Positions 8,586 to 49,247 of a stretch of 64,000 nucleotides of DNA are shown one piece after another. A program made the translations under genes and the position numbers. Location: NCBI GenBank assembly GCA_002317215.1, contig DCJD01000012.1, forward strand, positions 6,579-70,578. Direction: 5' to 3'. Origin of the DNA: Bacillales bacterium UBA1709 (GTDB taxonomy: Bacteria > Bacillota_I > Bacilli_A > RFN20 > UBA1709). Numbering within the stretch: the first letter of the stretch is position 1; the number at the start of each line of letters is the position of its first letter. The notes beneath the pieces are model-generated. The model was given only the letters and a program-made list of their open reading frames with translations. It did not search any database and had not been told where the DNA came from.

Positions 8586-11339
8586 ATGGAAATTAAAAAT
8601 TCATTAACAATGCCAAAAACAAGTTTTGAAATGAGAGGCAATTTAACAGTTAAAGAACCTAATGTTTTAAAATACTGGAAAGAAATAGATTTATATAATC
8701 TAATGTTAGAAAACACAAAAGGAAAGGAAACTTTCTTACTTCATGATGGTCCTCCATATGCTAACGGAGATATTCATGTTGGACATGCTTTAAATAAAAT
8801 ATTAAAAGATTTTATTATTCGTTATAAGAATATGTCAGGTTTTTATACACCATATATTCCAGGATGGGATACTCATGGTTTACCTATTGAAAGCGTATTA
8901 GCTAAAAAAGGGATAAAGAGAAAAGAAATTCCATTACCAGAATATCGTAATATGTGTCGTGACTATGCTTTTACGCAAGTTGCTAGACAAAAAGAAGGAT
9001 TTGTAAGACTTGGATCTTTAGGTGATTATGAACATCCATATTTAACATTACGTAAGGAATTTGAAGCTTATCAATTTGAAGTATTCGCTAAAATGGCTTT
9101 AGATGGATTAATTTACAAAGGTGCAAAACCAGTTTATTGGTCACCATCTAGTGAATCTTGTTTAGCTGAAGCTGAAATTGAATATTATGATGTAACAAGT
9201 ACTTCAATATTTGTTAAATTTGATGTTTTGGATGGTAAAGGTAAATTTAATAGCGATGAAAGCTTTGTTATTTGGACTACAACCCCTTGGACAATGCCTG
9301 CTAACTTAGCGATTTGTTTAAATGAGAAATTAGAATATGGAGTTTATGAAACAAACAAAGGCAATCTAATCTTTTTAACTTGCCTTGCTGATTCTTTAAC
9401 TAAAGAACTTGGTTTAGAAGATGTTAAATTAAGAAGAACATTTATTGGCAAAGAAGCCGAATATGTTACTTGCAAACATCCTTTATACGATAGAGAATCT
9501 TTAGTTATTTTAGGCGACCATGTTACTGTTGATGCTGGAACTGGATGTGTTCATACAGCTCCAGGTCATGGTGCAGATGACTTTATTGTTGGTAAAAAAT
9601 ATGGTTTAGATATTTTATGTCCTGTTGATGAAAAAGGATATATGATGAAAGAATGTGGATCTGAATTAGAAGGGATGTTTTATGAACAAGCTAATACTAA
9701 AGTATTAGAGATGTTAGATAATGCTAAGGCATTATTAAAAGCAACACCTATAACTCATAGTTATCCTCATGATTGGAGAACTAAAAAACCTATTATCTTT
9801 AGAGCAACTGCTCAATGGTTTGTCTCAATTGATCCTATTAAGAATAAGATATTAGATAATATTAAAAATGTTAATTGGTATCCTTCTTGGGGTGAAGTTA
9901 GATTATCTAATATGATTAAAGATAGACAAGATTGGTGTATCAGTAGACAAAGAGCATGGGGAGTTCCAATTCCAATGATTTATTGTGAAGATAATACGCC
10001 AATTGTTGAAAAGGAAGTTTTTGATCACTACATCAAATTAGTTAGAGAATACGGTAGCAATGTTTGGTTTGAGAAAACTGAACAAGAATTATTACCAAGT
10101 GGCTATACTAATATTCACTCTCCTAATAATAAGTTTAGAAAAGAAACTGATATTATGGATGTTTGGTTTGATAGTGGATCAAGTAGTATTGGAGTTTTAA
10201 GCGAGAATAAATTAGATTATCCTGCTGATTTATATTTAGAAGGTAGTGACCAATATAGAGGTTGGTTTAACTCATCTTTAATCATTGGTACAGCATTTAA
10301 AGGAGTTTCTCCATATAAAACTGTAGTAAGCCATGGGTTTGTACTTGATGAAAAAGGCAATAAGATGTCTAAATCTTTAGGCAATACTATTGATCCTATT
10401 AAAGTATGTAATACTTATGGAGCGGATATATTAAGATTATGGGTTGCAAGTCAAGAATATCAATCTGACTTAAGAATTGGTGATAATTTATTAAAACAAG
10501 TATCTGAAACTTATCGTAAGATTAGAAACACTTTAAGATTCTTACATGGTAACTTAAGCAATGGAGAATATGGATTATTTGATCCAAGTAAAGATATACA
10601 AGAAAGTTTAGAAGTAGTTGATACTTATGTATTAAATAAGCTATATAGTGTCACTAATAAATACTTAGATTATTTTGATAAATATGAATTTAATAATGCT
10701 ATTAACGAAATTACAAACTTTATGGCAATTGATTTATCAGGATTCTATTTAGATATTACAAAAGATATCTTATATTGTGATGACTATGAATCAAAAAGAA
10801 GATTACAAGTTCAAACTGTTTTATATTCTTGTTTAGATACACTAGTTCGTTTGTTGACTCCAATCTTACCATTTACAATGGAAGAGATTTATCAATTAAC
10901 ACCAAATCATAAGAAATCTGTTCAATTAATCTCAATGGCAAAACGTCATGAAGTTAGTGAAGAAAATATTAAAGAATATGAACAAATTCTAAATATTAGA
11001 ACAAGCGTATTAAAAGCGTTAGAAGAAGCTAGAAGTTCACAATTAATTGGTTCTGCTCAAGAAGCAAGTGTTCAAATTTGCTTTAATAATCAAGATGATT
11101 TTGCTTTATTTAATAAATTAAATAAGGTTGAGCAAGAAAGATTCTTTATTGTTTCTAAAGTAGAAGTAGTAGAAAATCTAGATGCTAAAGAATATGATGG
11201 TATTAAAGTAAAAGTTGAAAAGCATAATGGATGTAAATGTGTAAGATGTTGGAACAGATTTGACAAAGTTGATGAAAATGAACTTTGTGAAAGATGTGCC
11301 AAAGTATATAAGAAATATCAAGGTAAAGAAAATGCATAA
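8586..11339 (+). CDS. ileS: Isoleucyl-tRNA synthetase
   Basis: HVGHAL (HIGH) and KMSKS motifs, plus a C-terminal zinc ribbon CKCVRCW...CERC. The true start is ATG 8586 after RBS aaggag. The ORF-track start at 8520 would overlap the T-box terminator. Confidence 0.95.
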   Translation: MEIKNSLTMPKTSFEMRGNLTVKEPNVLKYWKEIDLYNLMLENTKGKETFLLHDGPPYANGDIHVGHALNKILKDFIIRYKNMSGFYTPYIPGWDTHGLPIESVLAKKGIKRKEIPLPEYRNMCRDYAFTQVARQKEGFVRLGSLGDYEHPYLTLRKEFEAYQFEVFAKMALDGLIYKGAKPVYWSPSSESCLAEAEIEYYDVTSTSIFVKFDVLDGKGKFNSDESFVIWTTTPWTMPANLAICLNEKLEYGVYETNKGNLIFLTCLADSLTKELGLEDVKLRRTFIGKEAEYVTCKHPLYDRESLVILGDHVTVDAGTGCVHTAPGHGADDFIVGKKYGLDILCPVDEKGYMMKECGSELEGMFYEQANTKVLEMLDNAKALLKATPITHSYPHDWRTKKPIIFRATAQWFVSIDPIKNKILDNIKNVNWYPSWGEVRLSNMIKDRQDWCISRQRAWGVPIPMIYCEDNTPIVEKEVFDHYIKLVREYGSNVWFEKTEQELLPSGYTNIHSPNNKFRKETDIMDVWFDSGSSSIGVLSENKLDYPADLYLEGSDQYRGWFNSSLIIGTAFKGVSPYKTVVSHGFVLDEKGNKMSKSLGNTIDPIKVCNTYGADILRLWVASQEYQSDLRIGDNLLKQVSETYRKIRNTLRFLHGNLSNGEYGLFDPSKDIQESLEVVDTYVLNKLYSVTNKYLDYFDKYEFNNAINEITNFMAIDLSGFYLDITKDILYCDDYESKRRLQVQTVLYSCLDTLVRLLTPILPFTMEEIYQLTPNHKKSVQLISMAKRHEVSEENIKEYEQILNIRTSVLKALEEARSSQLIGSAQEASVQICFNNQDDFALFNKLNKVEQERFFIVSKVEVVENLDAKEYDGIKVKVEKHNGCKCVRCWNRFDKVDENELCERCAKVYKKYQGKENA

Positions 11340-25481: not shown

Positions 25482-25497
25482 TGTTATAATTTTGAAG

Positions 25498-26766
25498 ATG
25501 GAAAAAGTTTATCTTTGTATTGATTTAAAGTCTTTTTATGCTTCTGTAGAATGTGTTGATAGAGGATTAGATTCAATGACAACTAATCTAGTTGTTGCAG
25601 ATCCTAGTAGAGGTAAAGGAACTATTTGCTTAGCGGTTTCTCCTGCATTAAAAGCATTAGGTGTAAGAAATAGATGTAGAGTATATGAGATACCTACATC
25701 TTTAAAATACATTATGGCTCCTCCTAGAATGAGTCGTTATATGGAGATGAGTTGCCTTATCTATAACATCTACTTAAAGTATATTAGTCAAGATGATATA
25801 CATGTTTATAGTATTGATGAATGTTTCCTAGATATAACAAATTATACTGATATGTATCAAAAAACTCCCATGGAACTAGCTAAAATGATTATAGATGATG
25901 TTTTTAATACAACAGGTATTGTGGCTACATGTGGTATTGGAACTAATCTATTCTTAGCTAAGATTGCTTTAGATATAACCGCGAAACATAGTCCAACTAG
26001 AATTGGGTATCTTGATGAAGAAAAGTTTAAAAAAGAACTTTGGGATCATAAACCAATCACGGATTTTTGGAATATTGCTAGTGGTATATCAACTAGATTG
26101 CTTAAATATAATGTTGATACATTAAGAGGGATTACTAAGTTAGATGAAGATTTATTGTATAAAGAATTTGGAATTAATGCTGAGTTATTAATTGATCATG
26201 CTTATGGCAAAGAAACCACAACTATTTATGATATTAAGCACTATACATCTAAATCAAATTCTTTATCTAAAGGACAAGTTTTATTTGAAGATTACAACTT
26301 TGAAAACGCCAAAATAATCCTAAAAGAAATGATTGATTCAATATGTTTAGATTTAGTTGAAAAACATTTAGTTGCAGGTTCAATAGGCCTTAGTATTGTT
26401 TATTCAAAAAGAGACAATTCTTCTATGTATGGATTAAGAAGTGGTGGTAGTAAAATACTTGGAGAAAGAACAAGAAGTAAGCCTAAATTAAAACAATATT
26501 TTCTTGATTTATATGAAAAATATATTGATAAAAATCAGTTAATTAGAGGTATAAATATTGGCCTTGGAGTATGCGATGAAGCATATAAAACAGTTGATTT
26601 ATTTGAGTCAAATAATGAATTAGAAAAAGAAGATACATTATCAAAAACTATCCTAAAAATCAAAGAAAAACATGGCAAGAATAGTATCTTAAAGGCATTA
26701 GATTTTAAGGATAAAGCAACTCAAAAAGATCGCAATAAATTTATTGGAGGACATAAGGGTGGATAG
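25498..26766 (+). CDS. Y-family (UmuC/UvrX/YqjW-like) translesion DNA polymerase
   Basis: The N-terminus LCIDLKSFYASVECV...LAVSPALKALGV matches the DinB/UmuC palm domain. The ATG lies only about 7 nt after the -10 box, so the transcript is probably leaderless or short-leader. The ORF-track start is a TTG. Confidence 0.8.
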   Translation: MEKVYLCIDLKSFYASVECVDRGLDSMTTNLVVADPSRGKGTICLAVSPALKALGVRNRCRVYEIPTSLKYIMAPPRMSRYMEMSCLIYNIYLKYISQDDIHVYSIDECFLDITNYTDMYQKTPMELAKMIIDDVFNTTGIVATCGIGTNLFLAKIALDITAKHSPTRIGYLDEEKFKKELWDHKPITDFWNIASGISTRLLKYNVDTLRGITKLDEDLLYKEFGINAELLIDHAYGKETTTIYDIKHYTSKSNSLSKGQVLFEDYNFENAKIILKEMIDSICLDLVEKHLVAGSIGLSIVYSKRDNSSMYGLRSGGSKILGERTRSKPKLKQYFLDLYEKYIDKNQLIRGINIGLGVCDEAYKTVDLFESNNELEKEDTLSKTILKIKEKHGKNSILKALDFKDKATQKDRNKFIGGHKGG

Positions 26767-26773
26767 AAATAAA

Positions 26774-27085
26774 ATGACCAATCAAGAAAGAGCAAAACAG
26801 TTTCTTCCTTTTGATGCTTTGGAAGGATATTTTGATATGGTTAATTTATCTACTTATGAGAAATGTGTTAGAAAATCTTTAGATGTTGATGAACAAGAAA
26901 GATTAGCAAAAATTCTATCCTCATTTCATAAAGCTGATATGGTTAGAATTACTTATTATGATATTGATCATTACAAAACAATAACTGGATTAATATCTAG
27001 AATAGATTATGACCATAACACCTTATCTATTGTTAAAACAAAAATATATGTTGAAGATATTATTAGTGCATACAAAGTAGAATAA
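26774..27085 (+). CDS. YolD-like protein (UmuD functional analogue partner of Y-family polymerases)
   Basis: About 104 aa. The N-terminal ERAKQFLPFDAL region resembles YolD-family proteins. SD aagggtgga lies upstream of ATG 26774. It sits immediately after the polymerase gene. Confidence 0.5.
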   Translation: MTNQERAKQFLPFDALEGYFDMVNLSTYEKCVRKSLDVDEQERLAKILSSFHKADMVRITYYDIDHYKTITGLISRIDYDHNTLSIVKTKIYVEDIISAYKVE

Positions 27086-27143
27086 TTTGACTTTTAATAT
27101 TATTAATTTACAATAATAAAAGACTAATAAGGAGGTTTTTAAA

Positions 27144-27743
27144 ATGAAATTAGCAAAAAGAGCATTTACTCTTGTTGAATTATTAGTTGTTATTGCCATA
27201 CTAGGAATTTTGGCTACTGTAGGAGTAGTTAGCTATACATCTTTAACTAAAAAAGGTTATATTTCTAACACTACTGATGAATTAACTCAAGTTAAAAAAG
27301 CTATTACAGCAGTATCATTAGATGCAAACGCACAAGTATATGTTAACGCTGATAATGATGGCTTATCATTCACAGGAAAGAGTCCATATTTCTGTGTTGC
27401 AACTGTTGCTTCACCAACTCCATCAACAATCACAACAGGTGATTATTACACATTGAAGACTGGCGCTACTAAGTTAGGCGAATTCGCTTCATTTGAAATT
27501 GATAATAATGAATTTTATGATCATGCTACTTACTATACATTAGTTGCTAACAACTATGGTTGGGCAGATGTTTATTATGAAGTTTGTGAAATTATTGATA
27601 ATCAAGAAATTGCTGCTAAAATTCAAACACCTACACCAAATGCTCAAGGAAAGATTACTTCAATTAGATATATCTATAATGAAGATTTCTACGGAACTTG
27701 GGATGTAGTAAAAGATACAATTAAAGTAACAGAAGTAAAATAA
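27144..27743 (+). CDS. Type IV pilin / ComGC-like major (pseudo)pilin
   Basis: Class III signal MKLAKRA|FTLVELLVVIAILGILA with Glu5. 199 aa. A strong RBS (aggagg) lies upstream and a strong terminator follows. Confidence 0.8.
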   Translation: MKLAKRAFTLVELLVVIAILGILATVGVVSYTSLTKKGYISNTTDELTQVKKAITAVSLDANAQVYVNADNDGLSFTGKSPYFCVATVASPTPSTITTGDYYTLKTGATKLGEFASFEIDNNEFYDHATYYTLVANNYGWADVYYEVCEIIDNQEIAAKIQTPTPNAQGKITSIRYIYNEDFYGTWDVVKDTIKVTEVK

Positions 27744-27750
27744 TGTACTA

Positions 27751-27786
27751 AAAAAGGAACAAATCATAAAAAATGTTCCTTTTTTG
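27751..27786 (+). terminator. Terminator after the major pilin gene
   Basis: aggaacaaatcataaaaaatgttcct hairpin followed by T5. Confidence 0.7.
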
Positions 27787-27871: not shown

Positions 27872-30547
27872 ATGATTAAAGCTATTAAAAAAGCCTTTAC
27901 TTTAGTTGAACTATTAGTCGTCATAGCCATTTTAGCAATTCTTGCTACTGTCGGTATCGTCTCTTATAGTTCATTTAAAGAAAAAGCACAAGTTTCTAAT
28001 GACGTTGGGTTAGTTACTCAACTAAACAGATTTGTTTACACTAAGACAAGTGAATCAATTACTTATCCTACACCATATTCTTTAATGGAAGATTTGGTTA
28101 ATGATAAAACAGGTATTGACTTATCTGAATTAGACACATTCAAAGGTGATTATCACTACGCATTCAATATTAACAAGGATGTTCAAAAATTCTTCTTAGT
28201 TAATAATAATTATGATGTAGTTGAAAACGGTAATGTTGTAACTAACAAATACAATAAAAATGCTAAATTAGATTTCTTTGTATTCGTTAAAGATAGCGAA
28301 GATGCTATTAAGATGGAACAAGCTGGATATAGCGTCTATCTACAAAACGGTACATATACTAACGAAACATTTGCCTCTTGGGAAGCTGGTCTTGATGTTG
28401 GCGATAATAAAATTAGCGCTATTAACTATGTTAATACCACAGGATCAAATAGAAGTGTTACATTTAGAACAATTGAAGGAACTTTAACTATTAATGCTCC
28501 TTTAGATAATGTTTATCACTATGGTTTTGCCAATGAAGTTATCTTAACTTCAACTGCAACCACTTCATATCATGAACTTGGTTCTACTCCAATTGTTTCA
28601 ATTAAAAGAGGAAGACTTGCTCTAGAATCAGGTTGTTCAGTACAAGTTGTTCACTTTGCATCTACTGAGGTTGCTAATGAACCTATGTATGATGATATTA
28701 GAGTAGCTATTGCTGATGGTGTAGATTTACCAATCTTTGCTAGAGATCGCGTTGAAATTCCAGAACATCAAATCAATAAGATGCTAGTCGTTGAATTACA
28801 ACATGGTTTAGATCCAGAATCATGTGATAAAGATAAGATTTATTTATATAAATACGGTATTGTTGAGCAAATGATCGTTGAAGAAGTTAAAACTTCTGTT
28901 GAACGTTATGCTGATGAAGAGGCTGTTAATGATGATTCTCAACAATGTGCAATTGATCTTGCAAACTGTTGGAGATATAACGGTCAAGATTATAAATACG
29001 GCGAATACAAAACTGATAAAACCGCTCAAGATGGTGTAATTAAAGTTTATCTTGATGGTACAGAAGAAGCTGATAAAACTGCTATTGCAGATGCCGAAGT
29101 TACTAATACTGGTATGGATTTCGAAGCAGCTACTAAGGTTGCCGCATTCGCAGGTGGTACTGGAACAGAAAATGACCCATACTTAATCTCAAATCCAACT
29201 CAATGGAATAACATTTATCCAATTCTACATGAAACAACACCTCTTAAGAAAATTACTTATTTCAAATTAGTTTCAGATGTTGATTTCACTGATTATTATA
29301 TTGATAACAGTCCAGTTGAAAATGATTATATTTATATCAATATGGATGGAAACGGACATGAACTTAAAAATGTAAGTAAATTTGCTCCTAATTCATCTGA
29401 ATCATTATTCAATTTATGTTGGAATATTACTTTATCTAACATGACTATTGACTTTGAAATAGTTTCTGATGGACGTAGCGGATATGTTGGTGGTATTAGT
29501 AAAGAACTAGGATGTACTAACCCAGATGATAAATCTGATAAAGCAGTATTTACTAACATTACAACAACAGGATCAATTATTAGAGATATAAGTGGTTTTA
29601 CTGGCGTATATACTTCTGAATTATATTGTAATGCTACATTCAATAATTGTGCTAACCACACATCACTTGTTTCTACAAGTTATGTTGCATCTATTGCTCC
29701 ACACTGTATGGCAGGTGGAAGTCAAATCAGTCTAACATTTAATGGATATTATAACTTTGCTCCAATGTATGGTGCACAAGTTGGTGGTATCTTTGCAATG
29801 TATAGTGGCGACATCAAACCACTTGTTACTGGTGGTGGAGTTGTTAACTATGGAAAGATATATTCAACAACACCATATCATGGTTGTTTCGATGCTAATG
29901 GTAACACATTCTATGATTCTAATAATGCAGTAAAAGATGTTAAAGGCGCAGAAAGTGCAACTACTTTAACTGTTACTCCTACAACTATTACATTAGGAGA
30001 ATTTGGCGATACTATTAAAACTGCCGCAGTTGCAAATGCTACTAGATATGCAATTAATATGTCATTTGCTACAGGACACTATGACTACACTCCTTCTTCT
30101 GGATGGGGCGGTGGATTCTATAGAACTCTTTCTAAAACTTATAGTGCTGAATATATGGCAGCACATAATTATGAATTCACAAACATGATTCACACATATA
30201 TTGGTGAAGTTAAAAATGATAAGCAAGATTTCTGGAGTAATGATCCAGTTGCTTATAACGGATTATATGTTAGTGACGATTTCTCAGTTGAAACTGACGG
30301 TGTAGAAATTATTGATACTTTCACAAATGGATTATATTTAATCTCATATGAAGGCAAGACTTTCTACTACTATAATTTAGATGCTAAGAGAGCTTTATTG
30401 GATAGTTCAATTCAAGAAGCTCGTAGTACAGGTAAATTCTATGTAACTGTTACTGTAACAGCTTATAAAGATAATACTATCATTGGTTATCGTTCTACTT
30501 CTTATTACTATACCCCAGATCAATGGGATGGATTTATTGCAGACTAG
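27872..30547 (+). CDS. Giant modular pilin (891 aa) with a prepilin-type N-terminus
   Basis: MIKAIKKA|FTLVELLVVIAILAILATVG class III signal. The C-terminal region of about 850 aa is rich in N/T/Y/G. Confidence 0.75.
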   Translation: MIKAIKKAFTLVELLVVIAILAILATVGIVSYSSFKEKAQVSNDVGLVTQLNRFVYTKTSESITYPTPYSLMEDLVNDKTGIDLSELDTFKGDYHYAFNINKDVQKFFLVNNNYDVVENGNVVTNKYNKNAKLDFFVFVKDSEDAIKMEQAGYSVYLQNGTYTNETFASWEAGLDVGDNKISAINYVNTTGSNRSVTFRTIEGTLTINAPLDNVYHYGFANEVILTSTATTSYHELGSTPIVSIKRGRLALESGCSVQVVHFASTEVANEPMYDDIRVAIADGVDLPIFARDRVEIPEHQINKMLVVELQHGLDPESCDKDKIYLYKYGIVEQMIVEEVKTSVERYADEEAVNDDSQQCAIDLANCWRYNGQDYKYGEYKTDKTAQDGVIKVYLDGTEEADKTAIADAEVTNTGMDFEAATKVAAFAGGTGTENDPYLISNPTQWNNIYPILHETTPLKKITYFKLVSDVDFTDYYIDNSPVENDYIYINMDGNGHELKNVSKFAPNSSESLFNLCWNITLSNMTIDFEIVSDGRSGYVGGISKELGCTNPDDKSDKAVFTNITTTGSIIRDISGFTGVYTSELYCNATFNNCANHTSLVSTSYVASIAPHCMAGGSQISLTFNGYYNFAPMYGAQVGGIFAMYSGDIKPLVTGGGVVNYGKIYSTTPYHGCFDANGNTFYDSNNAVKDVKGAESATTLTVTPTTITLGEFGDTIKTAAVANATRYAINMSFATGHYDYTPSSGWGGGFYRTLSKTYSAEYMAAHNYEFTNMIHTYIGEVKNDKQDFWSNDPVAYNGLYVSDDFSVETDGVEIIDTFTNGLYLISYEGKTFYYYNLDAKRALLDSSIQEARSTGKFYVTVTVTAYKDNTIIGYRSTSYYYTPDQWDGFIAD

Positions 30548-30558
30548 GAGAGATTATT

Positions 30559-31203
30559 ATGATATTTACAATGATAGATAAAATGTTTGAAATTCAAGGA
30601 TCTAACTTATTATTACTAGCAATTCTTTGTTCGCTAGTATCAGTAATGTTAATCATACTTATGATTCTTGGATTAGTTTCCGACAAAAAGATTAAAACTG
30701 AAAAGAAAGCTTTAACAGATGAAGCTGAGTATTATCAAAAACGTTATGAAAAAAGCGTTGAAGTTAATACATTAGTTGATGGTATTGTTTCTGCACTTGA
30801 AAAAGGCAAACCATTACCTGAAATTGAAGGTTACGTTTATAAACCTAAAAATGCTTCTAAAAAAGATACAAGACAATATGATCAATGTCTTGCAGAACTC
30901 CCAAAAGTTAAAAGACAAATCATTGAAGAATTTACTAAAGCTTGCAATGAACTTGAAGGAATTTCATCTAAAAAAGCTGGAAGAAAATTAACATATAAGT
31001 TAGGAAAATCCACAATTGCCGATATTACAATCAAGTTTGATACTGCTGTTATTAAAATCTATGTTCAAAATAAAGAATTATTAGATCGTGAAATGGTACT
31101 TAAACCATTATCATTCGATGTAACAAAATATCTAAATGTAGATAATTTAATCTTAGCTGTTAAACAAGCACATATTGTATTCGCTCTTGAAGCAAATAAA
31201 TAA
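30559..31203 (+). CDS. Bitopic membrane protein of the pilus operon (possible assembly / alignment component)
   Basis: ATG 30559 after RBS aggagag. One N-terminal TM helix (LLLLAILCSLVSVMLIILMILGLV) followed by a charged soluble domain. Confidence 0.45.
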   Translation: MIFTMIDKMFEIQGSNLLLLAILCSLVSVMLIILMILGLVSDKKIKTEKKALTDEAEYYQKRYEKSVEVNTLVDGIVSALEKGKPLPEIEGYVYKPKNASKKDTRQYDQCLAELPKVKRQIIEEFTKACNELEGISSKKAGRKLTYKLGKSTIADITIKFDTAVIKIYVQNKELLDREMVLKPLSFDVTKYLNVDNLILAVKQAHIVFALEANK

Positions 31204-31214
31204 TAAAATAAAAA

Positions 31215-31246
31215 TTAGGCATTTATATTATAAATGCCTTTTTTAT
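31215..31246 (+). terminator. Intra-operon terminator / attenuator
   Basis: aggcatttatattataaatgcct hairpin followed by T6. Confidence 0.6.
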
Positions 31247-31268
31247 TGAAATAGTGTATAATTTTATT

Positions 31269-31652
31269 ATGAAGAAAAAAACAAAAGGTTTTACACTAGT
31301 AGAAGTATTGGCTGCGATTAGCGTTGCGGCCATCCTTTTTGGACTTATTAGTTATAGTATGCTTTTTATTAATACAACAAGTAGTGAAGCGATTAGTGAA
31401 AGCGGAAGTAGCTATGCTATAAGAAAAATAAAAGATTATATTATAAGTCAACGAATTGATGATGATAAGTTTAATTATAGTGAGAATACTTTGTTTTATG
31501 ATTCATCTGTTATATTTGAAAACCTACCATTTGAAAGTATGAATATTGATATCGAAAATCATCTTGATGATAATTCAACATGGTGTACTATTGCATATTC
31601 AAGTAATAATAGTAGTGATTCAATTAATTTTGTTGTTTATATAGGAGGCTAA
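31269..31652 (+). CDS. Minor pilin / pseudopilin
   Basis: MKKKTKG|FTLVEVLAAISVAAIL prepilin signal. ATG 31269, whereas the ORF-track start is a GTG. Confidence 0.7.
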   Translation: MKKKTKGFTLVEVLAAISVAAILFGLISYSMLFINTTSSEAISESGSSYAIRKIKDYIISQRIDDDKFNYSENTLFYDSSVIFENLPFESMNIDIENHLDDNSTWCTIAYSSNNSSDSINFVVYIGG

Positions 31653-31653: not shown

Positions 31654-32433
31654 ATGAAGGATTGTTTTACAGTATTAACATTTAATAATGTCGGTAATGC
31701 TTTTATTTCAGTTAAAACTTACAAGCGATTAATTAGTGGTAAAGATGAGTTTATTAATGAAGATTATCTTGCATTAGATGATTTACAATTAAAAAACGGT
31801 TTACCAATTAACGCAAGTTACATTGCTGAATTTATTGAAGGGCTTGATATAAATGATTATGATTTATATCTATGTTTAAATTGCGATGAAATCTTTAAGA
31901 TTACCACTTCTATGCCTCATATTTCATTATCAAAAGCTAAAAAGGTTGTTGGTCTTGATATTAAAACTAACTACCCAGACTTAGTTGAGAATTATGATAA
32001 GAAACAATATATTTATGCTACTTCTCAAGGATACTTATTTTATGATTATTTAATACCAAAAAGAATTATTGATTTCTTTAAAAAGATTTTTAAAGAAAAG
32101 AATATTAAGTATCAAAAATATGTTTTATATCCTGAATTCTTATTAAAGACTAGTGGTATTAAGGATAAAGAATATGTTTATGCTTTTAATGAGCATGGTC
32201 TTGGTACATTAATTTTAAATTATAACGGAGCATATTCTTATTCTACTTTTGCTTATAATTTTAATGCTCTAAACCAAACATATTATCAAATGGTTAGCAA
32301 ACATCAATACGAACTAGAAAAGAAAACTTTAGATAAAGTATACTGCACTTTTGGTGTTATTGGATTTAGTGCAAAAGCAGAATATAAAGAGCCATTTAAA
32401 AAATATAAATTTGAATTAAAAGGATTGAAATAA
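31654..32433 (+). CDS. Hypothetical protein within the pilus operon
   Basis: 259 aa with no TM helix or recognised motif. It is tightly packed between pilin genes. Confidence 0.4.
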   Translation: MKDCFTVLTFNNVGNAFISVKTYKRLISGKDEFINEDYLALDDLQLKNGLPINASYIAEFIEGLDINDYDLYLCLNCDEIFKITTSMPHISLSKAKKVVGLDIKTNYPDLVENYDKKQYIYATSQGYLFYDYLIPKRIIDFFKKIFKEKNIKYQKYVLYPEFLLKTSGIKDKEYVYAFNEHGLGTLILNYNGAYSYSTFAYNFNALNQTYYQMVSKHQYELEKKTLDKVYCTFGVIGFSAKAEYKEPFKKYKFELKGLK

Positions 32434-32825
32434 TGAAAAAAGCGATGACACTTGTTGAAGTACTAGTTGCATTAACAATTTTCTTGTTAATCTTTACTTT
32501 AACATTGTCTATTTATGCTTCAATTAGTATTATTTCCAAAAGGCAAAAACAATATACCTACTTTGAATCAATCTGTTTAGATATCGACAAATATTATGAT
32601 TCATATGATAAACAATGGGATATATATTACTATAATCATAATGCTGAATTTGGAACGGTTATTTATTATTCATCCTCATATCAAGTATCTCAAAATAGCG
32701 ATGCTAGATATGAACTAGAATATAAATATGATATTGATGATCATTTAGTTGTTAGCATTAAAGATATTGTGAACGATAACTATGTTATTAAAGATTTAAA
32801 TTATGGAGTATCAAAAGCGAGATGA
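32433..32825 (+). CDS. Minor pilin / pseudopilin
   Basis: MKKA|MTLVEVLVALTIFLLIF prepilin signal with Glu5. It ends on a TGA stop. Confidence 0.7.
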   Translation: MKKAMTLVEVLVALTIFLLIFTLTLSIYASISIISKRQKQYTYFESICLDIDKYYDSYDKQWDIYYYNHNAEFGTVIYYSSSYQVSQNSDARYELEYKYDIDDHLVVSIKDIVNDNYVIKDLNYGVSKAR

Positions 32826-32995
32826 AAACTAAGAAAGCTAGTGCATTACTTGTTACATTCATTGTCTGTCTTGTTCTATTAATCTTAGTTGTTGGAACAC
32901 TTTCATTAGTTGTTCGTTATAATCTTGATGTTAATAGAAGAAGTGATTTACTTGAAAATAAAGTATACAACGTTATAAAAGGAGAAATATGGTAA
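32822..32995 (+). CDS. Small pilin-like membrane protein (57 aa), ComGG-like, without Glu5
   Basis: MKTKKASALLVTFIVCLVLLILVVGTLSLVV. Absent from the ORF track because it is under 60 aa. Its start overlaps the previous gene (ATGA). Confidence 0.4.
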   Translation: MKTKKASALLVTFIVCLVLLILVVGTLSLVVRYNLDVNRRSDLLENKVYNVIKGEIW

Positions 32996-33762
32996 ACATT
33001 ATTATTGGTTTATTTATATTTGTTATTGGAACTTGCTTCGCAAGCTTCTTTGGCGTTGTTATAAGTAGAGTACCAAACAAAATGTCAATTGTTAAACCTG
33101 ATAGTCATTGCTTCAATTGCGATCATGAACTTAAATGGTATGAGAATATTCCTTTGATTTCTTATATAGTATTAAAAGGAAAATGCAGTAATTGTAATAC
33201 TAAGATTGGTATTTTCTCGTTTATCTATGAATTAGTTGGTGGATTAGTTCCATTATTTATATTTATTAAGTTTGGAATTAATGTTGAATCAATATTAATA
33301 ATGGTTATTAGTTTAATTCTTTTATTAATGGCCGGATACGACTATAAAACAAATACTATATTAGATATTATGTGGATGGTATTTGGAATATTAGTATTAA
33401 TGTTATTTATGTATCGTTCTATATTCTTATTTATTCCATTTAAAAACTACCTAATTAGTTTTGCTATTGGATCAATTATATTTATATTTATTAAGTTATT
33501 TGGTTTATTTATTTTAAAGATGGATATTTTAGGAACTGGCGATGTCATTGTTTTTGGACTATCTTGTTTATTATTTAATCCACTTGGTATTTTAATTAGT
33601 TTAATAATTAGTTGTGTTCCAGGATCAATTATTGAATTAATTAAATTATCAAAATCTAAAGAAGAAAAAGAAATTGCCTTTCTTCCTTATTTAGCATTTG
33701 GAATATATATCGCAATTCTTTTTACTCCATTTATTACTAATTTATTATTTGAGGTGATCTAA
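32989..33762 (+). CDS. pilD: Prepilin peptidase (A24 family, PilD/ComC)
   Basis: N-terminal tetracysteine CFNC...CSNC zinc motif followed by polytopic membrane helices. Confidence 0.8.
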   Translation: MVNIIIGLFIFVIGTCFASFFGVVISRVPNKMSIVKPDSHCFNCDHELKWYENIPLISYIVLKGKCSNCNTKIGIFSFIYELVGGLVPLFIFIKFGINVESILIMVISLILLLMAGYDYKTNTILDIMWMVFGILVLMLFMYRSIFLFIPFKNYLISFAIGSIIFIFIKLFGLFILKMDILGTGDVIVFGLSCLLFNPLGILISLIISCVPGSIIELIKLSKSKEEKEIAFLPYLAFGIYIAILFTPFITNLLFEVI

Positions 33763-33763: not shown

Positions 33764-34969
33764 ATGCCATTTTATAGATGCAAAGTATATAACCAACTTG
33801 GAAAACAAATCGTTACTTATAAAGAAGCAACTGATGAAACAAGTTTAAAAGCTAATTTAAAAACCGATTGTTTGATTTTGATTAATGCTAGTGTTGTCAA
33901 AGAAAAAGAACCAAATGTATTTTTTAGTGTTTCTAGTAAAATTAAAAGAAGCGAAGTTATTATGTTTTTAAGACAATTCTCCGTTTTAATTAGTAGTAGC
34001 GTTTCTATAGCTGATGCATTAAGTAGTTTAAAATCTCAAAGATATTCTAAACCATTCATGAAAGTATTAATGGAGATATATCGTGATGTAATGAGTGGAA
34101 AACTATTATCAGAAGCTTTTGGAGTTCATCCTAAAGTATTCCCAAGATTTTTCGTTGAAATGGTTGCAATTGGTGAAGTATCAGGATCTCTTGATAATGT
34201 ATTAAAGCAAATGGCAGATTATTATGAGAAAGATAATAAAATCAAAGGGAAAGCTAAAGCTGCTTTAACTTATCCTTCTATATTATTTGTCATGATTAAT
34301 ATTGTTATTATATTTATGAGTTTTGTTATCTTGCCTCAATTTGAAAATATGTTTATTGAATTTGGAGGGACTGTTCCAAAATTTACTACAACAATATTAG
34401 ATATTGCTTACTATATTCGTACAAATCTATTCTATATTATTGTTGGCTTACTTACTTTCTTCTCTTTATTATATTTATATTTTCAAACTAAATCAGGCAA
34501 ATATTCCAAAGATAAGATTGCCTTACATTTACCTTTTGTAGGGAGAATTAATAGAGCAATTATTACATCAAGATTTACTAAAGCATTCGTCATATTATTA
34601 AACAGTGGTATGAATATAAGCGATTGTATGGAAAACTTAAAAAGAGTATTAACTAACCAAGTTTTCTCTAAGAAATTTGATTATGCTATTACGGAAGTTA
34701 AAAGAGGTAAATCGATTGCAAGATCAATTGAGAATACAGATATGTTCCCAAGCATCTTAATTGAAATGATTAAAGTTGGAGAAAAAAGTGGCAACTTAGA
34801 AGAAGTATTAAATTCAACTTCAGGTTTCTATGATGATGAAGTTGAAAGAAGTATATCCAAAGCAACGGCGGCACTTGAACCTATTATGATATTATTCCTA
34901 GGTGCGGTAGTAGTTGTTGTACTATTAAGCGTTTATATACCAATGCTTGACTTAATGAATCAAATTTAG
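33764..34969 (+). CDS. pilC: Type IV pilus / T2SS platform protein (GspF/PilC/ComGB)
   Basis: 401 aa with two T2SSF repeats, each followed by TM segments. Confidence 0.8.
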   Translation: MPFYRCKVYNQLGKQIVTYKEATDETSLKANLKTDCLILINASVVKEKEPNVFFSVSSKIKRSEVIMFLRQFSVLISSSVSIADALSSLKSQRYSKPFMKVLMEIYRDVMSGKLLSEAFGVHPKVFPRFFVEMVAIGEVSGSLDNVLKQMADYYEKDNKIKGKAKAALTYPSILFVMINIVIIFMSFVILPQFENMFIEFGGTVPKFTTTILDIAYYIRTNLFYIIVGLLTFFSLLYLYFQTKSGKYSKDKIALHLPFVGRINRAIITSRFTKAFVILLNSGMNISDCMENLKRVLTNQVFSKKFDYAITEVKRGKSIARSIENTDMFPSILIEMIKVGEKSGNLEEVLNSTSGFYDDEVERSISKATAALEPIMILFLGAVVVVVLLSVYIPMLDLMNQI

Positions 34970-34981: not shown

Positions 34982-36658
34982 ATGATAATCAATGAAAGAT
35001 TTGCAAAATACCTAGAGACAAATAGCTCAATTAGTCCAGAAATGATCAATAAATATCTTGATATTTCAGATAAAAATGAGACGCCAATTTATTTTGAAAT
35101 TATTAAAGAACCTAAAGTTTCTGAAGAAGAAGTATATCGTTTACTTGCTACATTCTTTAAAACCGAATATCGTTATGTTCAATTATCAGAATTAAATTTC
35201 CCATTAATTGATAAATTTCCTCGTGCAAAATTAATCGAATTTAAAACTGTTCCAATTGAAGAAAATGAAGATAGTGTTTCTTTTATTCTTTCAAACCCAT
35301 TAAGATTTGAAGATTTACAAGAATTTAAAGCAATTACTCCAAAACAAATTAGATGCTATGTTTCAACAACTTCTAATATTAATGATTTAGTTTCTTATAT
35401 TGATAACAAAGCACAACAAAGAAGTGTTATGGAAGGTTTGGATAGCGATTCTAATTTTAAAGATAGCGAGAATAATGGTAATAAAACTGTTGAGATTGAT
35501 GCTCCTGTTATTAAACTTTGTGACTCTATTTTAAAAGATGCAATCAGTAGAAAAGCTAGTGATATTCATATTGAGCCTTTCCAAGAAGACTTATTATTAA
35601 GATTTAGAATAGATGGTAAATTAAGCGTTGTTGATCATCTAAACTTGAACATGTATCAAGCAATTTTAGCTCGTTATAAAATTATGGCCGAGATGAATAT
35701 TGCTGAACGTCGTGTTCCCCAAGATGGTAAAATTAATATGAGTATAAGCGGGGTTGAATTTGACTTCCGTGTCTCAACAATACCTACAATCAATGGTGAG
35801 AAAATAGTTATAAGAATATTCAATAACTCCTTATCTACAGCCAATATTAATAGTTTAGGATATAATGAAAATGAACAAAAATTAGTTCTAAACATGATTT
35901 CAAGACCACATGGAATAATATTACTTACTGGTCCAACTGGATCTGGTAAATCAACATCATTATATACATTTTTAAGACACCTAAATAAAGAAGATACTAA
36001 TATTATTACGGTTGAAGATCCAGTTGAAAATGTTATTGATGGTATAAATCAAGTTCAAGTTAATCCAAAAGCAAATATGACTTTTGCTAATGCATTAAGA
36101 TCTATATTAAGACAAGACCCTAATATTATAATGATTGGTGAAATTCGTGATGAAGAAACAGCTGCCATTGCAACTCGTGCTGCTATTACTGGTCACTTAG
36201 TTTTATCTACATTACATACCAATAGTGCAACTGGAGTTGTATCAAGACTTGTTAATATGGGAGTTGCCCCTTATTTAGTTGCTGATAGTTTACTTGGAGC
36301 AATCTCTCAAAGACTTGTTAGAAGATTATGCCCAAAATGTAAAAAGGAACACTTAACTACTAAAGCTGAAATGGAAATATTAGGTTTAGATAAACCTACT
36401 AAAATTTGTTCTCCAGTAGGCTGTCCTGCATGTAACAATACAGGATATAGTGGTAGAACTGGTGTATTTGAGATTATGGTTTGCGATGATAGTGTTCGTA
36501 GTGCAATTATGAACGATCATTTCTCAACTGAATTATTAAATAATGTTGTAGAAGGTAAAATGGTTTCTTTAATTGATAATTGTAAAGAAAAGATTTTACA
36601 AGGAATTACAAGCATTGAAGAATACAATGAATTATCTGAGGTTGTTAAAACAAAATAA
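34982..36658 (+). CDS. pilB: Type IV pilus assembly ATPase (GspE/PilB/ComGA)
   Basis: Walker A LLTGPTGSGKST, Asp box, His box, and a C-terminal tetracysteine CPKC...CPAC. Confidence 0.85.
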   Translation: MIINERFAKYLETNSSISPEMINKYLDISDKNETPIYFEIIKEPKVSEEEVYRLLATFFKTEYRYVQLSELNFPLIDKFPRAKLIEFKTVPIEENEDSVSFILSNPLRFEDLQEFKAITPKQIRCYVSTTSNINDLVSYIDNKAQQRSVMEGLDSDSNFKDSENNGNKTVEIDAPVIKLCDSILKDAISRKASDIHIEPFQEDLLLRFRIDGKLSVVDHLNLNMYQAILARYKIMAEMNIAERRVPQDGKINMSISGVEFDFRVSTIPTINGEKIVIRIFNNSLSTANINSLGYNENEQKLVLNMISRPHGIILLTGPTGSGKSTSLYTFLRHLNKEDTNIITVEDPVENVIDGINQVQVNPKANMTFANALRSILRQDPNIIMIGEIRDEETAAIATRAAITGHLVLSTLHTNSATGVVSRLVNMGVAPYLVADSLLGAISQRLVRRLCPKCKKEHLTTKAEMEILGLDKPTKICSPVGCPACNNTGYSGRTGVFEIMVCDDSVRSAIMNDHFSTELLNNVVEGKMVSLIDNCKEKILQGITSIEEYNELSEVVKTK

Positions 36659-37581
36659 TGCAAGATATTACTAGATTAAGTAAAGAAGAATTAAACAAAA
36701 AACTTATTGAGATAGAGAATTTATCTGACGAAGAAAGTTTATTATTGAAAGCTAAAATATATTATTCTTTGAATAATATAGATAAAGCTTTATTAACAAT
36801 AATTGATTGTTTAAATAAATCTAATAAGTATTATTATGAAGCAATTCTTATTAAGATAGATTGTTTAGAAGCTAAAAAGAAATATATCGAAGCTTTAAAG
36901 GTTTTAGATGAAGAATTATCAATGCCTTATATACCAAATGATTATGAACTTAAATTTAAAGAAAAATATAAATATTTATTAAGCTTTTTTAATCAATCTT
37001 CATCTGAAAATACCCTAGATAATATGGATGATAAAAGTCTAGGGGAATTATTAGTTAAAACTGATAACTTAGAGATTTTAGAAGGTATTATTGAACAATT
37101 ATTTAAAAGAAATGTTCGAAACATTCTTCCATATATTAAAGAATTTTTATTGGATGAAAATAAAAATAATATGATGAAATCATTTATAATAGTTGTTTTA
37201 AATGAACAGAAAATTGATGAGCAGATTCCAGTTGTTAAAAATGATATGAATCTAACCATTGTTCCATCTGATTTAACATCATATCAAAATTTAGATGCCT
37301 ATCCTAAAATATTAAATATTATTGATGAATTAAACACAAATCATAATGTTACTATTGATAATATTGCAAAGATAGGATTAGAAAGTGCTATTCTATATAA
37401 TTATCCTTTAGAAATTGATTTTGATGAATATATTTATTACGGAATTGGATTATATATTAAAGCCAATAAATCATTAAATATAGAAATAGATTCTAATGCA
37501 CTAATAAACAAATATCATCTTAGTAGTAAAACCCTCACATACTACTTACATTTAATTGAAAATATAACCAATCTATGTTAA
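36658..37581 (+). CDS. Hypothetical protein (307 aa), last gene of the pilus operon
   Basis: Helical and repeat-like (possibly TPR-like). It is coupled to the pilB stop (TAATG). Confidence 0.35.
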   Translation: MQDITRLSKEELNKKLIEIENLSDEESLLLKAKIYYSLNNIDKALLTIIDCLNKSNKYYYEAILIKIDCLEAKKKYIEALKVLDEELSMPYIPNDYELKFKEKYKYLLSFFNQSSSENTLDNMDDKSLGELLVKTDNLEILEGIIEQLFKRNVRNILPYIKEFLLDENKNNMMKSFIIVVLNEQKIDEQIPVVKNDMNLTIVPSDLTSYQNLDAYPKILNIIDELNTNHNVTIDNIAKIGLESAILYNYPLEIDFDEYIYYGIGLYIKANKSLNIEIDSNALINKYHLSSKTLTYYLHLIENITNLC

Positions 37582-44259: not shown

Positions 44260-44294
44260 AATAAATAGTGTTATAATAAAACTGCGTTGAATAG

Positions 44295-44513
44295 AAGGTA
44301 TTAGAATTATTCTTAATAGAGAGCTAATAGTGGGTGGAAAATTAGCAAAGATATAATCTAATATGTCGTCTAGGAGCATAAAGATGAAAATAAGTAGTCT
44401 TTACGGGTTATTCCGTTATAAATAAATTAAGGTGCATAGTTTAAAAACTATGAATAAGGATGGTACCGCGAATTTTCGTTCCTATATATTTTATATATAG
44501 GAACTTTTTTATT
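44295..44513 (+). promoter_or_regulatory. T-box riboswitch leader of valS
   Basis: aaggatggtaccgcg at 44456-44470, plus the terminator ttcctatatat...atatataggaac followed by a T-run. The candidate Val specifier is GUC in atgtcgtc. Confidence 0.85.
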
Positions 44514-47278: not shown

Positions 47279-47491
47279 ATGAGACAACTTACAATTAAAG
47301 AAGAGAAGGGAATTAAAGGTGGTGAAGCATTAACTATTGCTCTTGTTTGCGCGGTAATGGCAACATCAATTTTTATTATTGTTGGATGGAAAATGTATCA
47401 ATCAACTAAGGGCTCAATTCAAATTCCAGGAGGCTTTAAATTTAGTTGGTCAGCAGTGAAATTAGGAATATCAAATATATTTAGAAAGTAA
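47279..47491 (+). CDS. Small hydrophobic peptide (70 aa) with a Gly-Gly leader-like N-terminus
   Basis: MRQLTIKEEKGIKGG, followed by the TM helix ALTIALVCAVMATSIFIIVGW. An RBS (aggag) lies upstream. Confidence 0.4.
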   Translation: MRQLTIKEEKGIKGGEALTIALVCAVMATSIFIIVGWKMYQSTKGSIQIPGGFKFSWSAVKLGISNIFRK

Positions 47492-48162
47492 TGAAAATTA
47501 GGGATATTTGCGAAAGCGATAAACCAAGAGAAAAAACATTAATAAAAGGCATTGAGAGTTTGTCGGATGCAGAACTTATTTCGTTATTAATAAGAACTGG
47601 TACAAGCTATGAATCGGCCATTGATCTTTCGTATGAAGTATTAAATAGAATTGGAGGTTTACAAGAATTAAAAAATACTACTTATAGTGAAATAGCTAGT
47701 ATTAAAGGAATGGGAGTTTCTAAAACGCTTGCTTTAATTGCGTGTGTAGAAGTAGCTAAAAGAATGGAGATAGAATATAAGCCCTTATCAAAGATTAAAT
47801 CTATCGAACAAATAGTTAACATTTTTGAACCTTTATTAAAAAATGAAAAGCAAGAATATCTTTATGGTTTATATTTGGATTCAAGACAAAATCTGATTAA
47901 ATATGTAATGCTATATAAAGGTGGTTTAAATGAGCATTACATACACCCAAGAGATATATTTAGAGAAGCAATAAAACTTAATGCTGCAGCGGTTATTTTG
48001 CTTCATAATCATCCTAGCGGTGAATGTGAACCGAGTAGCAAAGATGTTGAAACAACTTTAAGAATTCAAGAACTCGGTAAAGAGATAGGCATTCCCTTGA
48101 TTGATCATTTGATAATCGGAACAAAAAGACATTGTTCATTGAAACAATTGGGATTGATTTAA
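47491..48162 (+). CDS. radC: RadC-like JAB-domain protein (UPF0758)
   Basis: HNHPSG JAMM motif, with an HhH N-terminal domain. Confidence 0.85.
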   Translation: MKIRDICESDKPREKTLIKGIESLSDAELISLLIRTGTSYESAIDLSYEVLNRIGGLQELKNTTYSEIASIKGMGVSKTLALIACVEVAKRMEIEYKPLSKIKSIEQIVNIFEPLLKNEKQEYLYGLYLDSRQNLIKYVMLYKGGLNEHYIHPRDIFREAIKLNAAAVILLHNHPSGECEPSSKDVETTLRIQELGKEIGIPLIDHLIIGTKRHCSLKQLGLI

Positions 48163-48182
48163 ATATTATATATTTAACTAAT

Positions 48183-48321
48183 TGACTACAATATTGGCTT
48201 GTGGTAACATTTATTCGTTGTTAGCCTTCTTGGAGGGTTACAACCGCTCTCTATGGGTCTATAAAGCCATTGGCTACCTAATTAGGCGAGTCTTATCCAA
48301 ATTATAGGAGGTGTAATCAAA
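48183..48321 (+). promoter_or_regulatory. Promoter (TTGACT-17-TAACAT) and structured leader of the rplU-prp-rpmA operon (candidate L21 leader)
   Basis: The roughly 100-nt leader is relatively GC-rich, with a gttgttagcc...ggttacaac stem. Its position matches the L21 autoregulatory leader of Firmicutes. Confidence 0.4.
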
Positions 48322-48636
48322 ATGTACGCAATTATTGAAACAGGTGGAAAACAAATCAAAGTCGCAAAAGGAGATTTAGTTTTTGTTGAAAAACTAGATG
48401 CTAAAGTAGGAGAAGAAGTAGTTTTTGATAAAGTTCTTCTAGTATGTGACAAAAAAGCACAAGTTGGAAAACCATATGTTAAAAATGCAGTAGTAAAGGC
48501 TAGTGTCGAGAAACAAGACAAAGCAAAAAAGGTTATCGTCTTCAAATATCGTTCTAAAGCTAATGAAAGAAATAAGAACGGTCATAGACAACCATATACA
48601 AAAGTTAAAATTACTAGCATTGAAATTGGTGAATAA
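48322..48636 (+). CDS. rplU: 50S ribosomal protein L21
   Basis: [12 protein letters not shown]-terminus. Confidence 0.95.
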
Positions 48637-48941
48637 TGATTAATATTAGAATTACTACAAAAAATGATTTAATTGAAGAGATTATTATCGATGGACATAG
48701 TAATTATGATGAGTATGGAAAGGACATTGTATGTTCAGCTGTAAGCGCAATTACAATTGGCACTATTAATGCTCTTATTAAGCTTGTTAATAAAAATACT
48801 GTATATGCTAAAGATGATGGTTATGCATTAATTAAATTTGAAAAAGATAATTCTAGTCAAATTATTGCTCAAACAATGATTATTCAACTAAAGTCGATTG
48901 AAGATTCATACAAAGAATTTTTAAAAATTATTTATTCTTAA
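48636..48941 (+). CDS. prp: Ribosomal-processing cysteine protease Prp
   Basis: The GHS...C...S dyad context and its position between rplU and rpmA both fit Prp. Confidence 0.8.
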   Translation: MINIRITTKNDLIEEIIIDGHSNYDEYGKDIVCSAVSAITIGTINALIKLVNKNTVYAKDDGYALIKFEKDNSSQIIAQTMIIQLKSIEDSYKEFLKIIYS

Positions 48942-48956
48942 TACGGAGGTGTAATT

Positions 48957-49241
48957 ATGTTATTAAAATTATGTTTGCAATTATTCGCATCCAAAAAGGG
49001 TGTTGGTTCTACTAAAAACGGTAGGGACAGCGAATCTAAGAGATTGGGCGCTAAATTAAGTGACGGACAAGTTTGTACTAAAGGCGCAATAATTTATAGA
49101 CAACGTGGAACAAAAATTCATCCAGGAAATAATGTAGGTAAAGGTGGAGATGACACTTTATTTGCATTAATCGATGGTGTTGTAAAATATGAAAGAGTTG
49201 GCAAGTGCCGTACTCGCGTTTCAGTCTATCCAAAAGCTTAG
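48957..49241 (+). CDS. rpmA: 50S ribosomal protein L27 with an N-terminal propeptide
   Basis: [10 protein letters not shown]|[15 protein letters not shown]. The conserved mature N-terminus ASKKG is preceded by a 10-aa extension ending in F, which is the Prp cleavage site. Confidence 0.9.
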
Positions 49242-49247
49242 TTAATA

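Follow-up and report, generated by a model that had tools for sequence, protein, structure and literature searches.

Why does a type IV pilus operon of a probably wall-less bacterium encode a pilin of 891 amino acids (aa), and what would such a subunit do? The question is raised by a gene on the forward strand of a 64,000-nucleotide (nt) stretch of DNA from Bacillales bacterium UBA1709 (GenBank assembly GCA_002317215.1, contig DCJD01000012.1, positions 6,579 to 70,578), which is called the window below. We refer to the product as the giant pilin; the same protein (100% identity) is found in JGI sample 3300001598, in Logan SRR1221442 and on a 160-kb NCBI contig. Our preferred answer, to which we give a probability of roughly 0.6, is that the giant pilin is a minor type IV pilin made of several modules, displayed at the tip of the pilus and presenting a binding module there.

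Prepilin signal and fold of the giant pilin

The gene and the parts of its product are as follows, the folds being predicted.

27872..30547, plus strand: giant pilin gene, 891 aa plus stop, ATG start
27872..27895, plus strand: leader peptide MIKAIKKA (residues 1-8), placed by motif position, predicted PilD cleavage after Ala8
27896..28048, plus strand: mature N-terminus and alpha1 (residues 9-59), with Phe1, Glu5 and hydrophobic alpha1N
28049..28741, plus strand: N-terminal module (N-module, residues 60-290), alpha/beta head followed by a short right-handed beta-helix, family-defining
28742..29143, plus strand: middle region (residues 291-424), a folded part or a linker, partly conserved in the relatives P0121 and P0140
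29144..29881, plus strand: beta-helix cargo (residues 425-670), right-handed parallel, M26-N/GLUG-like, opening with GGTGTENDPYLI (428-439)
30014..30544, plus strand: C-terminal domain (residues 715-891), rich in beta structure, W-G-G-F and Y-N-G motifs conserved

By all the sequence tests that we applied, the giant pilin is a prepilin, and its prepilin features are far outside chance expectation. A ribosome-binding site, GAGAGGG, stands 5 nt before the ATG, and the protein begins with MIKAIKKA followed by FTLVELLVVIAILAILATVG, which places Glu at mature position 5. PF07963 scores it at 27.6 bits (cut-off 21.2) and TIGR02532 at 27.8 (cut-off 16.3). The published PilFind rule (PMC3244431), which looks for [GAS]-x4-[DE] within about 35 aa of the start, at least 14 uncharged residues after it and one transmembrane (TM) segment, also picks out the giant pilin, and across the whole window it selects only the four pilins of the pil cluster and two short shadow open reading frames (ORFs). 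The residue at -1 is Ala, versus the classical Gly; the PilFind motif permits Ala, and 98 of the 120 closest relatives have it as well. The adjacent 199-aa pilin shares 57% identity with it over residues 2-55, residues 1-36 form the sole hydrophobic segment, and alpha1 is modelled by AlphaFold2 (AF2) as a helix over residues 11-59 (49 residues), with a predicted local distance difference test score (pLDDT) of 83-96. The most frequent residue in the protein is Thr, followed by Val, then Ala, Gly, Tyr and Asp equally, then Asn and then Ser.

These results bear out what a sequence-only reading of this DNA had claimed for the gene, namely an ORF of 891 aa with a class III signal and Glu5, a leader region resembling that of the adjacent pilin and no second hydrophobic segment. 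The PilFind check that it had proposed was run through the published rule, and the prepilin peptidase PilD, which it had placed 2.4 kb downstream, starts at 32989, 2.44 kb past the giant pilin stop.

The body that follows alpha1 was examined with two AF2 models, one of the full length with 115 relatives in the alignment (mean pLDDT 69) and one limited to residues 400-891, for which ten homologues of the cargo were aligned. In the first, residues 425-670 are rich in beta structure, and the pLDDT is mostly above 90 as far as about residue 290, with an alpha/beta part followed by evenly spaced strands, and DSSP assigns one helix and four to five short strands to residues 60-170, again at high pLDDT. 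In the second model, the beta-helix at residues 425-670 reaches a pLDDT of 73-97. As modelled, the body is mostly folded and has no low-complexity character. The sequence-only reading had named a disordered or low-complexity C-terminal region as grounds for giving up its proposal; that objection fails over most of the protein and may still apply to residues 291-424 and 671-714, which stay poorly modelled.

When the model was compared with the PDB by Foldseek, the single significant match was 3n6z (E 2e-7). The same structure was matched by phmmer from sequence alone (E 1.5e-6), in an alignment that starts at residue 424 and sets GGTGTENDPYLISNPTQWNNI (residues 428-448) against the start of the 3n6z beta-helix, so that the GGTGTENDPYLI segment is placed where the helix begins, much as the sequence-only reading had supposed when it likened this segment to the opening rung of a right-handed beta-helix. 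Neither Pfam nor NCBIfam has a match in the cargo, and across the whole protein Pfam detects only N_methyl. A profile search of the N-module against the PDB returned only noise.

Relatives of the giant pilin and possible exchange of its cargo

A full-length search with the giant pilin returned 272 proteins at E <=1e-3. Among the matches listed, 119 relatives all carry N_methyl motifs and measure 496-864 aa (median about 625), and the giant pilin is the longest. What the relatives have in common is query residues 1 to about 265. Within the N-module, which has no Pfam family and no sequence relative in the PDB, D175 and G177 are invariant and T200, H216, G237 and G247 nearly so. The genomes that carry it are gut and rumen metagenome-assembled genomes (MAGs) labelled as uncultured Bacilli, Clostridia, Oscillospiraceae, Ruminococcus and Subdoligranulum; Treponema and Salinivirgaceae contribute one match each.

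We also observed that polar residues recur 16-25 positions apart over residues 175-235 of the N-module (window 28394-28576), where T200, H216, S232 and E235 are each at least 90% conserved alongside the invariant D175. In the short beta-helix these five would line up along one face, which could be a metal, ligand or subunit-contact site.

The C-terminal parts of the relatives are very diverged, yet most of them are related (a single BLAST single-linkage component takes in 95 of 116), and in a few a GLUG, M26_N, Beta_helix or Pectate_lyase_5 domain is recognised. Finding homologues of the giant pilin's own cargo required an exhaustive HMMER search: a word-indexed search with residues 290-891 returned the giant pilin alone, and one with the cargo profile A5 gave almost no matches. 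With residues 290-891, the exhaustive search found about ten clusters that hold the entire cargo, beta-helix and C-terminal domain included. Three of these proteins, P0124, P0127 and P0128 (783-848 aa), have the overall architecture of the giant pilin, with the cargo on the same pilin carrier. In P0126 and P0129 the cargo stands behind a signal of the SipW-dependent type (TIGR04088 cut-off 19, scores 20.8 and 20.2), the kind by which TasA/camelysin-type proteins are exported. Since it is fused either to the pilin carrier or to a SipW-dependent signal, the cargo of about 470 aa behaves as an autonomous surface-display module common to two export or fibre systems. In L040, from a second low-GC (guanine plus cytosine) organism, a pilin with the same cargo lies 1.1 kb after pilD-pilC-pilB.

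Several family loci have features of their own. Locus L037 (330-7726), from the JGI sample 3300001598 that also holds the window sequence, has 27.6% GC and two tandem family pilins of 864 and 795 aa, with a third, interrupted copy upstream of the pair. Their leaders, M-R-I-I/F-K-K-A followed by FTLVELLVVIAIL, almost match that of the window, and in tetranucleotide usage L037 correlates with the window at 0.97, a value shared by other low-GC Bacilli MAG loci and to be set against 0.992-0.996 within the window. In two other genomes, large pilin genes of the family are directly preceded by genes for small membrane proteins (147-159 aa), at 385-864 and 8399-8878 of L035 and at 8727-9170 and 13460-13909 of L040, which seem to have three TM segments and are weakly alike (E 0.007); the window has no counterpart of them, and the giant pilin gene there is followed by a 214-aa single-TM gene. 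In L035, an array of three large pilin genes is also interrupted by a reverse transcriptase of the group II intron type (RVT_1 plus GIIM, 6724-7770).

In L028 (6921-13075) and L038 (7138-12400), 5'-truncated copies of the pilin family begin at or just upstream of a conserved VVIRTN motif and adjoin a small prepilin gene and tyrosine-recombinase genes, one in L028 and two in L038. P0121, the nearest homologue of the window cargo, is such a truncated copy, and P0123 and P0125 begin at the same point. A 29-nt inverted repeat in L028 (7990-8018 and 12493-12521, 86%) spans the VVIRTN motif, a 73-nt inverted repeat (97%) is also present, and the GC content rises from 0.28 to 0.39 near position 8000. 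This arrangement could reflect shufflon-like cassette switching or an assembly artefact. In the window, no silent cassettes, repeats or recombinase are tied to the giant pilin gene.

The pil operon and its host

Around the giant pilin gene, the pil locus contains the following features.

27087..27114, plus strand: candidate sigma-70-like promoter TTGACT-16-TACAAT upstream of the 199-aa pilin gene (10 of 12 positions agree in a consensus scan; a consensus match only)
27144..27743, plus strand: 199-aa prepilin, presumed major pilin, leader MKLAKRA followed by FTLVELL (PF07963 30.8 bits; TIGR02532)
27749..27786, plus strand: terminator-like hairpin with U-tract between the 199-aa and giant pilin genes (dG, the folding free energy, -12.4 kcal/mol, z -4.3)
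30559..31203, plus strand: 214-aa single-TM protein abutting the giant pilin gene (the longest ORF starts at 30523)
31207..31247, plus strand: terminator-like hairpin 3' of the 214-aa gene (dG -14.0 kcal/mol, z -4.2; found by the consensus scan too)
31254..31652, plus strand: minor prepilin, 132-aa ORF, KKKTKG followed by FTLVEVL (PF07963 29.0 bits; TIGR02532; PilFind motif)
31654..32433, plus strand: 259-aa protein between the two minor pilin genes (no family or PDB match)
32433..32825, plus strand: minor prepilin of 130 aa, MKKA followed by MTLVEVL (TIGR02532 19.9 bits against a cut-off of 16.3; motif present)
32989..33762, plus strand: prepilin peptidase PilD (A24) with N-terminal Cys-rich domain (PF06750, A24_N_bact, E 2.3e-29; PF01478, Peptidase_A24, 26.8 against 26.5 bits)
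33764..34969, plus strand: platform protein PilC/GspF (PF00482, T2SSF, E 4.8e-61)
34982..36658, plus strand: assembly ATPase PilB/GspE with MshEN N-domain (PF00437, T2SSE, E 1.7e-136; PF05157)

The operon thus holds four prepilins together with PilD, PilC and PilB, all on the plus strand, the last three being encoded 2.4-4.4 kb downstream of the giant pilin. The 199-aa pilin gene, preceded by an AAGGAGG ribosome-binding site, opens the cluster, and because a stable hairpin separates it from the giant pilin gene (none of 200 shuffles was equally stable by RNA fold), it has the typical layout of a strongly expressed major pilin, a role that we infer for its product. The giant pilin gene and the 214-aa gene may form one transcription sub-unit. 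The 214-aa protein has no relative in Pfam, NCBIfam or the PDB, and no homologue of it was found beside the other members of the giant pilin family that we examined, while L028 carries a homologue of the 259-aa protein at the corresponding position. The PilD translation shows YDYKT...D and GTGDV motifs and is of the bifunctional type. The closest pil operon that we found belongs to an 'uncultured Bacilli' MAG from reindeer, whose PilB is 58% identical.

Directly upstream of the operon, at window 25492-27085, lie genes for a Y-family DNA polymerase (IMS) and a YolD-like protein. Downstream, at 36658-37581, is the gene of a TPR-like protein that resembles DUF3196 (28.0 bits; cut-off 28.2), whose start codon overlaps the pilB stop, and this overlap suggests that the two genes are translationally coupled. 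No DUF3196-like counterpart follows pilB in either L028 or L040.

The window is housekeeping chromosome of about 28% GC with the standard code, and two of its regions bear on the cell wall. The dcw region at 4358-11339 reads mraZ-rsmH-ftsA-like-ftsZ-sepF-ileS-lspA-rluD and contains no ftsL, pbp, murE, mraY, murD, ftsW, murG or divIVA. At 47491-50570, the L21 leader comes straight after radC and leads into rplU, prp, rpmA and obg, with neither mreBCD nor minCD in the region. Both regions are syntenic by gene order with those of Bacillus, where an mreBCD-minCD block stands between radC and rplU, and the reduced dcw layout is that of Mollicutes. Because both regions are devoid of wall genes, the host is likely to be wall-less, and the earlier supposition of a wall-less lineage gains support from the 64 kb covered here. 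A T-box leader (109.5 bits) at 44278-44486, upstream of the valyl-tRNA synthetase gene, is ordinary.

Independent loss of peptidoglycan has been reported in such Bacilli lineages (PMC12786226). In 2011, PilFind used Mollicutes as its negative set, type IV pilus genes being considered absent from them (PMC3244431). For RF39, Acholeplasma and similar lineages that have no wall, our literature search found no description of type IV pili.

Proposed role of the giant pilin and competing explanations

In the mechanism that we propose, the PilD encoded in the operon would remove the 8-residue leader after Ala8 and methylate Phe1, as the motif and the co-encoded peptidase suggest. The giant pilin would join the same filament as the 199-aa pilin, because the alpha1N of the two is almost identical, and PilB and PilC would assemble that filament. 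Incorporation would come first, probably together with the two small minor pilins, and would leave the giant pilin at the distal tip, since about 830 residues of folded cargo would be sterically too bulky for the filament body. A tip location has been argued in the same way for PilB of Streptococcus sanguinis (PMC8179133) and for ComZ (PMC6561018), which are precedents for bulky modular pilins at pilus tips. There, the conserved N-module, head and short beta-helix together, would act as carrier or stalk, and the M26-N/GLUG-type beta-helix with the C-terminal beta domain would form the ligand-binding (adhesive) module, for which glycans or proteins of the gut environment are the likeliest ligands.

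Several points weigh against this proposal. Residues 311-413 are poorly modelled in the full-length AF2 model (pLDDT below 50), the connector at residues 671-714 is of low confidence, and the C-terminal domain (715-891) reaches a pLDDT of only 53-84 and has no assigned fold match. The fold matches listed for the giant pilin include no pilin structure, which concerns the topology of the head. The beta-helix fold is equally typical of polysaccharide-degrading enzymes, and pilT is not present in the window. Most loci of the family are tandem arrays with no pilBCD nearby, and in a wall-less cell a membrane-anchored pilin would be exposed at the surface even when unpolymerised.

The last two points also speak for an explanation in which the class III signal serves only for PilD processing and membrane anchoring, so that the giant pilin would stay in the membrane and act outside any filament, as an adhesin or receptor in monomeric form, like the sugar-binding proteins of the archaeal bindosome. 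An ectodomain of 830 aa on one TM helix would already be exposed on a host that is probably wall-less, and class III signals are documented on non-filament proteins (PMC3047682). We nonetheless consider this explanation unlikely: the alpha1N is almost identical to that of a co-encoded pilin, as co-assembly requires, the gene lies between major and minor pilin genes within the pil operon, and the family is found in MAGs of walled Clostridia and Oscillospiraceae too.

A second explanation keeps the giant pilin on the pilus and makes its beta-helix an enzyme that would act on polysaccharides as a lyase, hydrolase or depolymerase, much like a phage tailspike; the right-handed parallel beta-helix predicted here is also that of pectate-lyase-fold lyases and glycosidases. 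In the cargo alignment of 10-11 sequences, where the giant pilin shares 27-35% identity with its ten homologues, the invariant positions of the beta-helix are occupied by Gly, Asn, Tyr, Phe, Leu and Ile, and Asn recurs about every 30 positions, as it would in a structural ladder. Asp, Glu, Lys and Arg are absent from the invariant positions of the beta-helix in this small alignment, and of its acidic and basic residues His612 alone is at least 90% conserved. Because the beta-helix has no invariant acidic or basic residue, conservation favours a binding or structural role over that of a lyase or hydrolase for the predicted cargo. The closest matches, 3n6z and the N-domain of IgA1 proteases, are not known as catalytic domains, PF20585 is described as a putative adhesive domain, and identity to enzymes is only 5-14%. 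We retain an enzyme as a rival because the alignment is small, and judge it improbable.

A third explanation takes the filament to be a DNA-uptake pilus with the giant pilin as a tip receptor like ComZ of Thermus thermophilus. ComZ is likewise a large pilin, in which a big beta-solenoid accompanies the pilin fold and DNA is bound at the tip; its proposed tip position, together with a small partner pilin, follows from a steric argument (PMC6561018). In the window, the small pilins weakly match ComGE/ComGF models, the 130-aa prepilin being weakly ComGF/ComGE-like. However, all ComG equivalog models fall below their cut-offs on the pil proteins of the window (ComGA on PilB 284 against 300, ComGC 17 against 75), and the PilB and GspE models, at about 545 bits on the same PilB, are under their own equivalog cut-offs as well. 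PilB is of the full-length PilB/GspE type with MshEN, unlike ComGA, the 199-aa pilin is twice the size of ComGC (about 100 aa), and neither comEA nor comEC is present in the window. ComZ itself differs in that its solenoid is inserted inside the pilin fold, has a triangular cross-section and binds DNA, and in that it has no canonical signal and carries Gly at position 5; no homology to the giant pilin was detected. From its sequences, the pil locus resembles a generic monoderm type IV pilus more than a Com pilus, and we regard a competence role as highly improbable.

Finally, a pilus-displayed metalloprotease of the IgA1 type, for which one could cite that the best structural relatives are annotated as IgA1 proteases and that a pilin+M26 architecture is listed as a predicted peptidase (PMC8179133), is effectively refuted and was rejected, as HExxH is absent from all 891 aa, Pfam finds no Peptidase_M26_C and the match is limited to the N-terminal beta-helix of M26 enzymes. 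The label of those relatives is not transferable for the same reason: 3n6z (BACOVA_03286) and the N-terminal beta-helix of M26 IgA1 proteases (7uvk, 7jgj, 6xja) share the beta-helix with the giant pilin cargo, but the latter is borne on a pilin instead of a Sec or LPXTG protein and comes with no M26 catalytic domain.

A tip-displayed modular pilin, our preferred interpretation, has counterparts in known systems. The sequence-only reading regarded pilins of this size as rare and named PilB and PilC of S. sanguinis as the precedents, which overstates their rarity: the census of Raynaud et al. 2021 (PMC8179133) counts more than 1,200 modular pilins of up to 860 aa in 264 architectures, a pilin+IPR011493 (GLUG/M26) architecture with a predicted peptidase among them, and the family of the giant pilin itself has at least 270 prepilins. 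S. sanguinis PilB (vWA) and PilC (lectin) (PMC8179133; PMC9934059) resemble the giant pilin in the class III signal with Glu5, in one or more folded modules grafted on a pilin module, in a monoderm pil operon with PilD, PilC and PilB, and in the expectation that they sit at the tip and mediate binding. The giant pilin differs from them in its cargo, a beta-helix plus a beta domain instead of vWA or lectin, and in a conserved carrier of about 280 aa with a short beta-helix at its own end; it is about twice the size of PilB, and no sequence homology to either was detected. CofB of enterotoxigenic Escherichia coli type IVb pili (PMC8179133) is also a minor pilin with extra beta domains that acts at the tip as adapter or initiator, but it is of type IVb, trimeric, and built of a beta-repeat plus a beta-sandwich. 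Tapirins of Caldicellulosiruptor (bioRxiv 10.1101/359786) are beta-helix binding proteins linked to a Firmicutes type IV pilus locus; they are not pilins, have no class III signal, and the Foldseek comparison with 6n2b was not significant (E 5.3). A paper on a TANB77 'conserved pilin' describes a Tad-type system and was set aside as unrelated. Beyond the mention in the census, our literature search found no paper joining GLUG with a pilin.

The giant pilin combines a pilin module with a beta-helix (425-670) homologous to 3n6z, in a cargo that is also borne by non-pilins, and so belongs to the established class of modular pilins. A signature-based census would miss it as modular, because Pfam detects N_methyl only, and it is exactly the case predicted by Raynaud et al. 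2021, who expected many further modular pilins whose modules have no database signature (PMC8179133). What distinguishes it is its length of 891 aa, the conserved carrier ending in a beta-helix, the extra C-terminal domain and a probably wall-less host. A wider picture is possible though doubtful, in which beta-helix tip pilins of gut Firmicutes would form a large undescribed family on a carrier of about 280 aa (pilin plus beta-helix stalk), wall-less Mollicutes-like Bacilli would use a pilus capped by a giant pilin as their main adhesion organelle, the cargo of about 470 aa would be swapped between type IV pilins and SipW/TasA-type fibres, and silent, 5'-truncated cargo cassettes beside tyrosine recombinases in the relatives would be moved onto the pilin by site-specific recombination in a shufflon-like manner.

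No general principle is altered by the giant pilin. If our interpretation is correct, it would be a well-defined added example of how type IV pili gain functions through modules grafted on pilins, from a family that is abundant in gut and rumen Firmicutes and missed by domain-signature censuses, and its conserved carrier could serve to detect and sort such proteins by the hundred. Our interpretation would also mean that a reduced, probably wall-less lineage of Bacilli retains a complete type IV pilus, with a surface protein of about 97 kDa as its most conspicuous subunit, and this would be a candidate means by which these uncultured gut organisms may attach to hosts, food particles or other cells.

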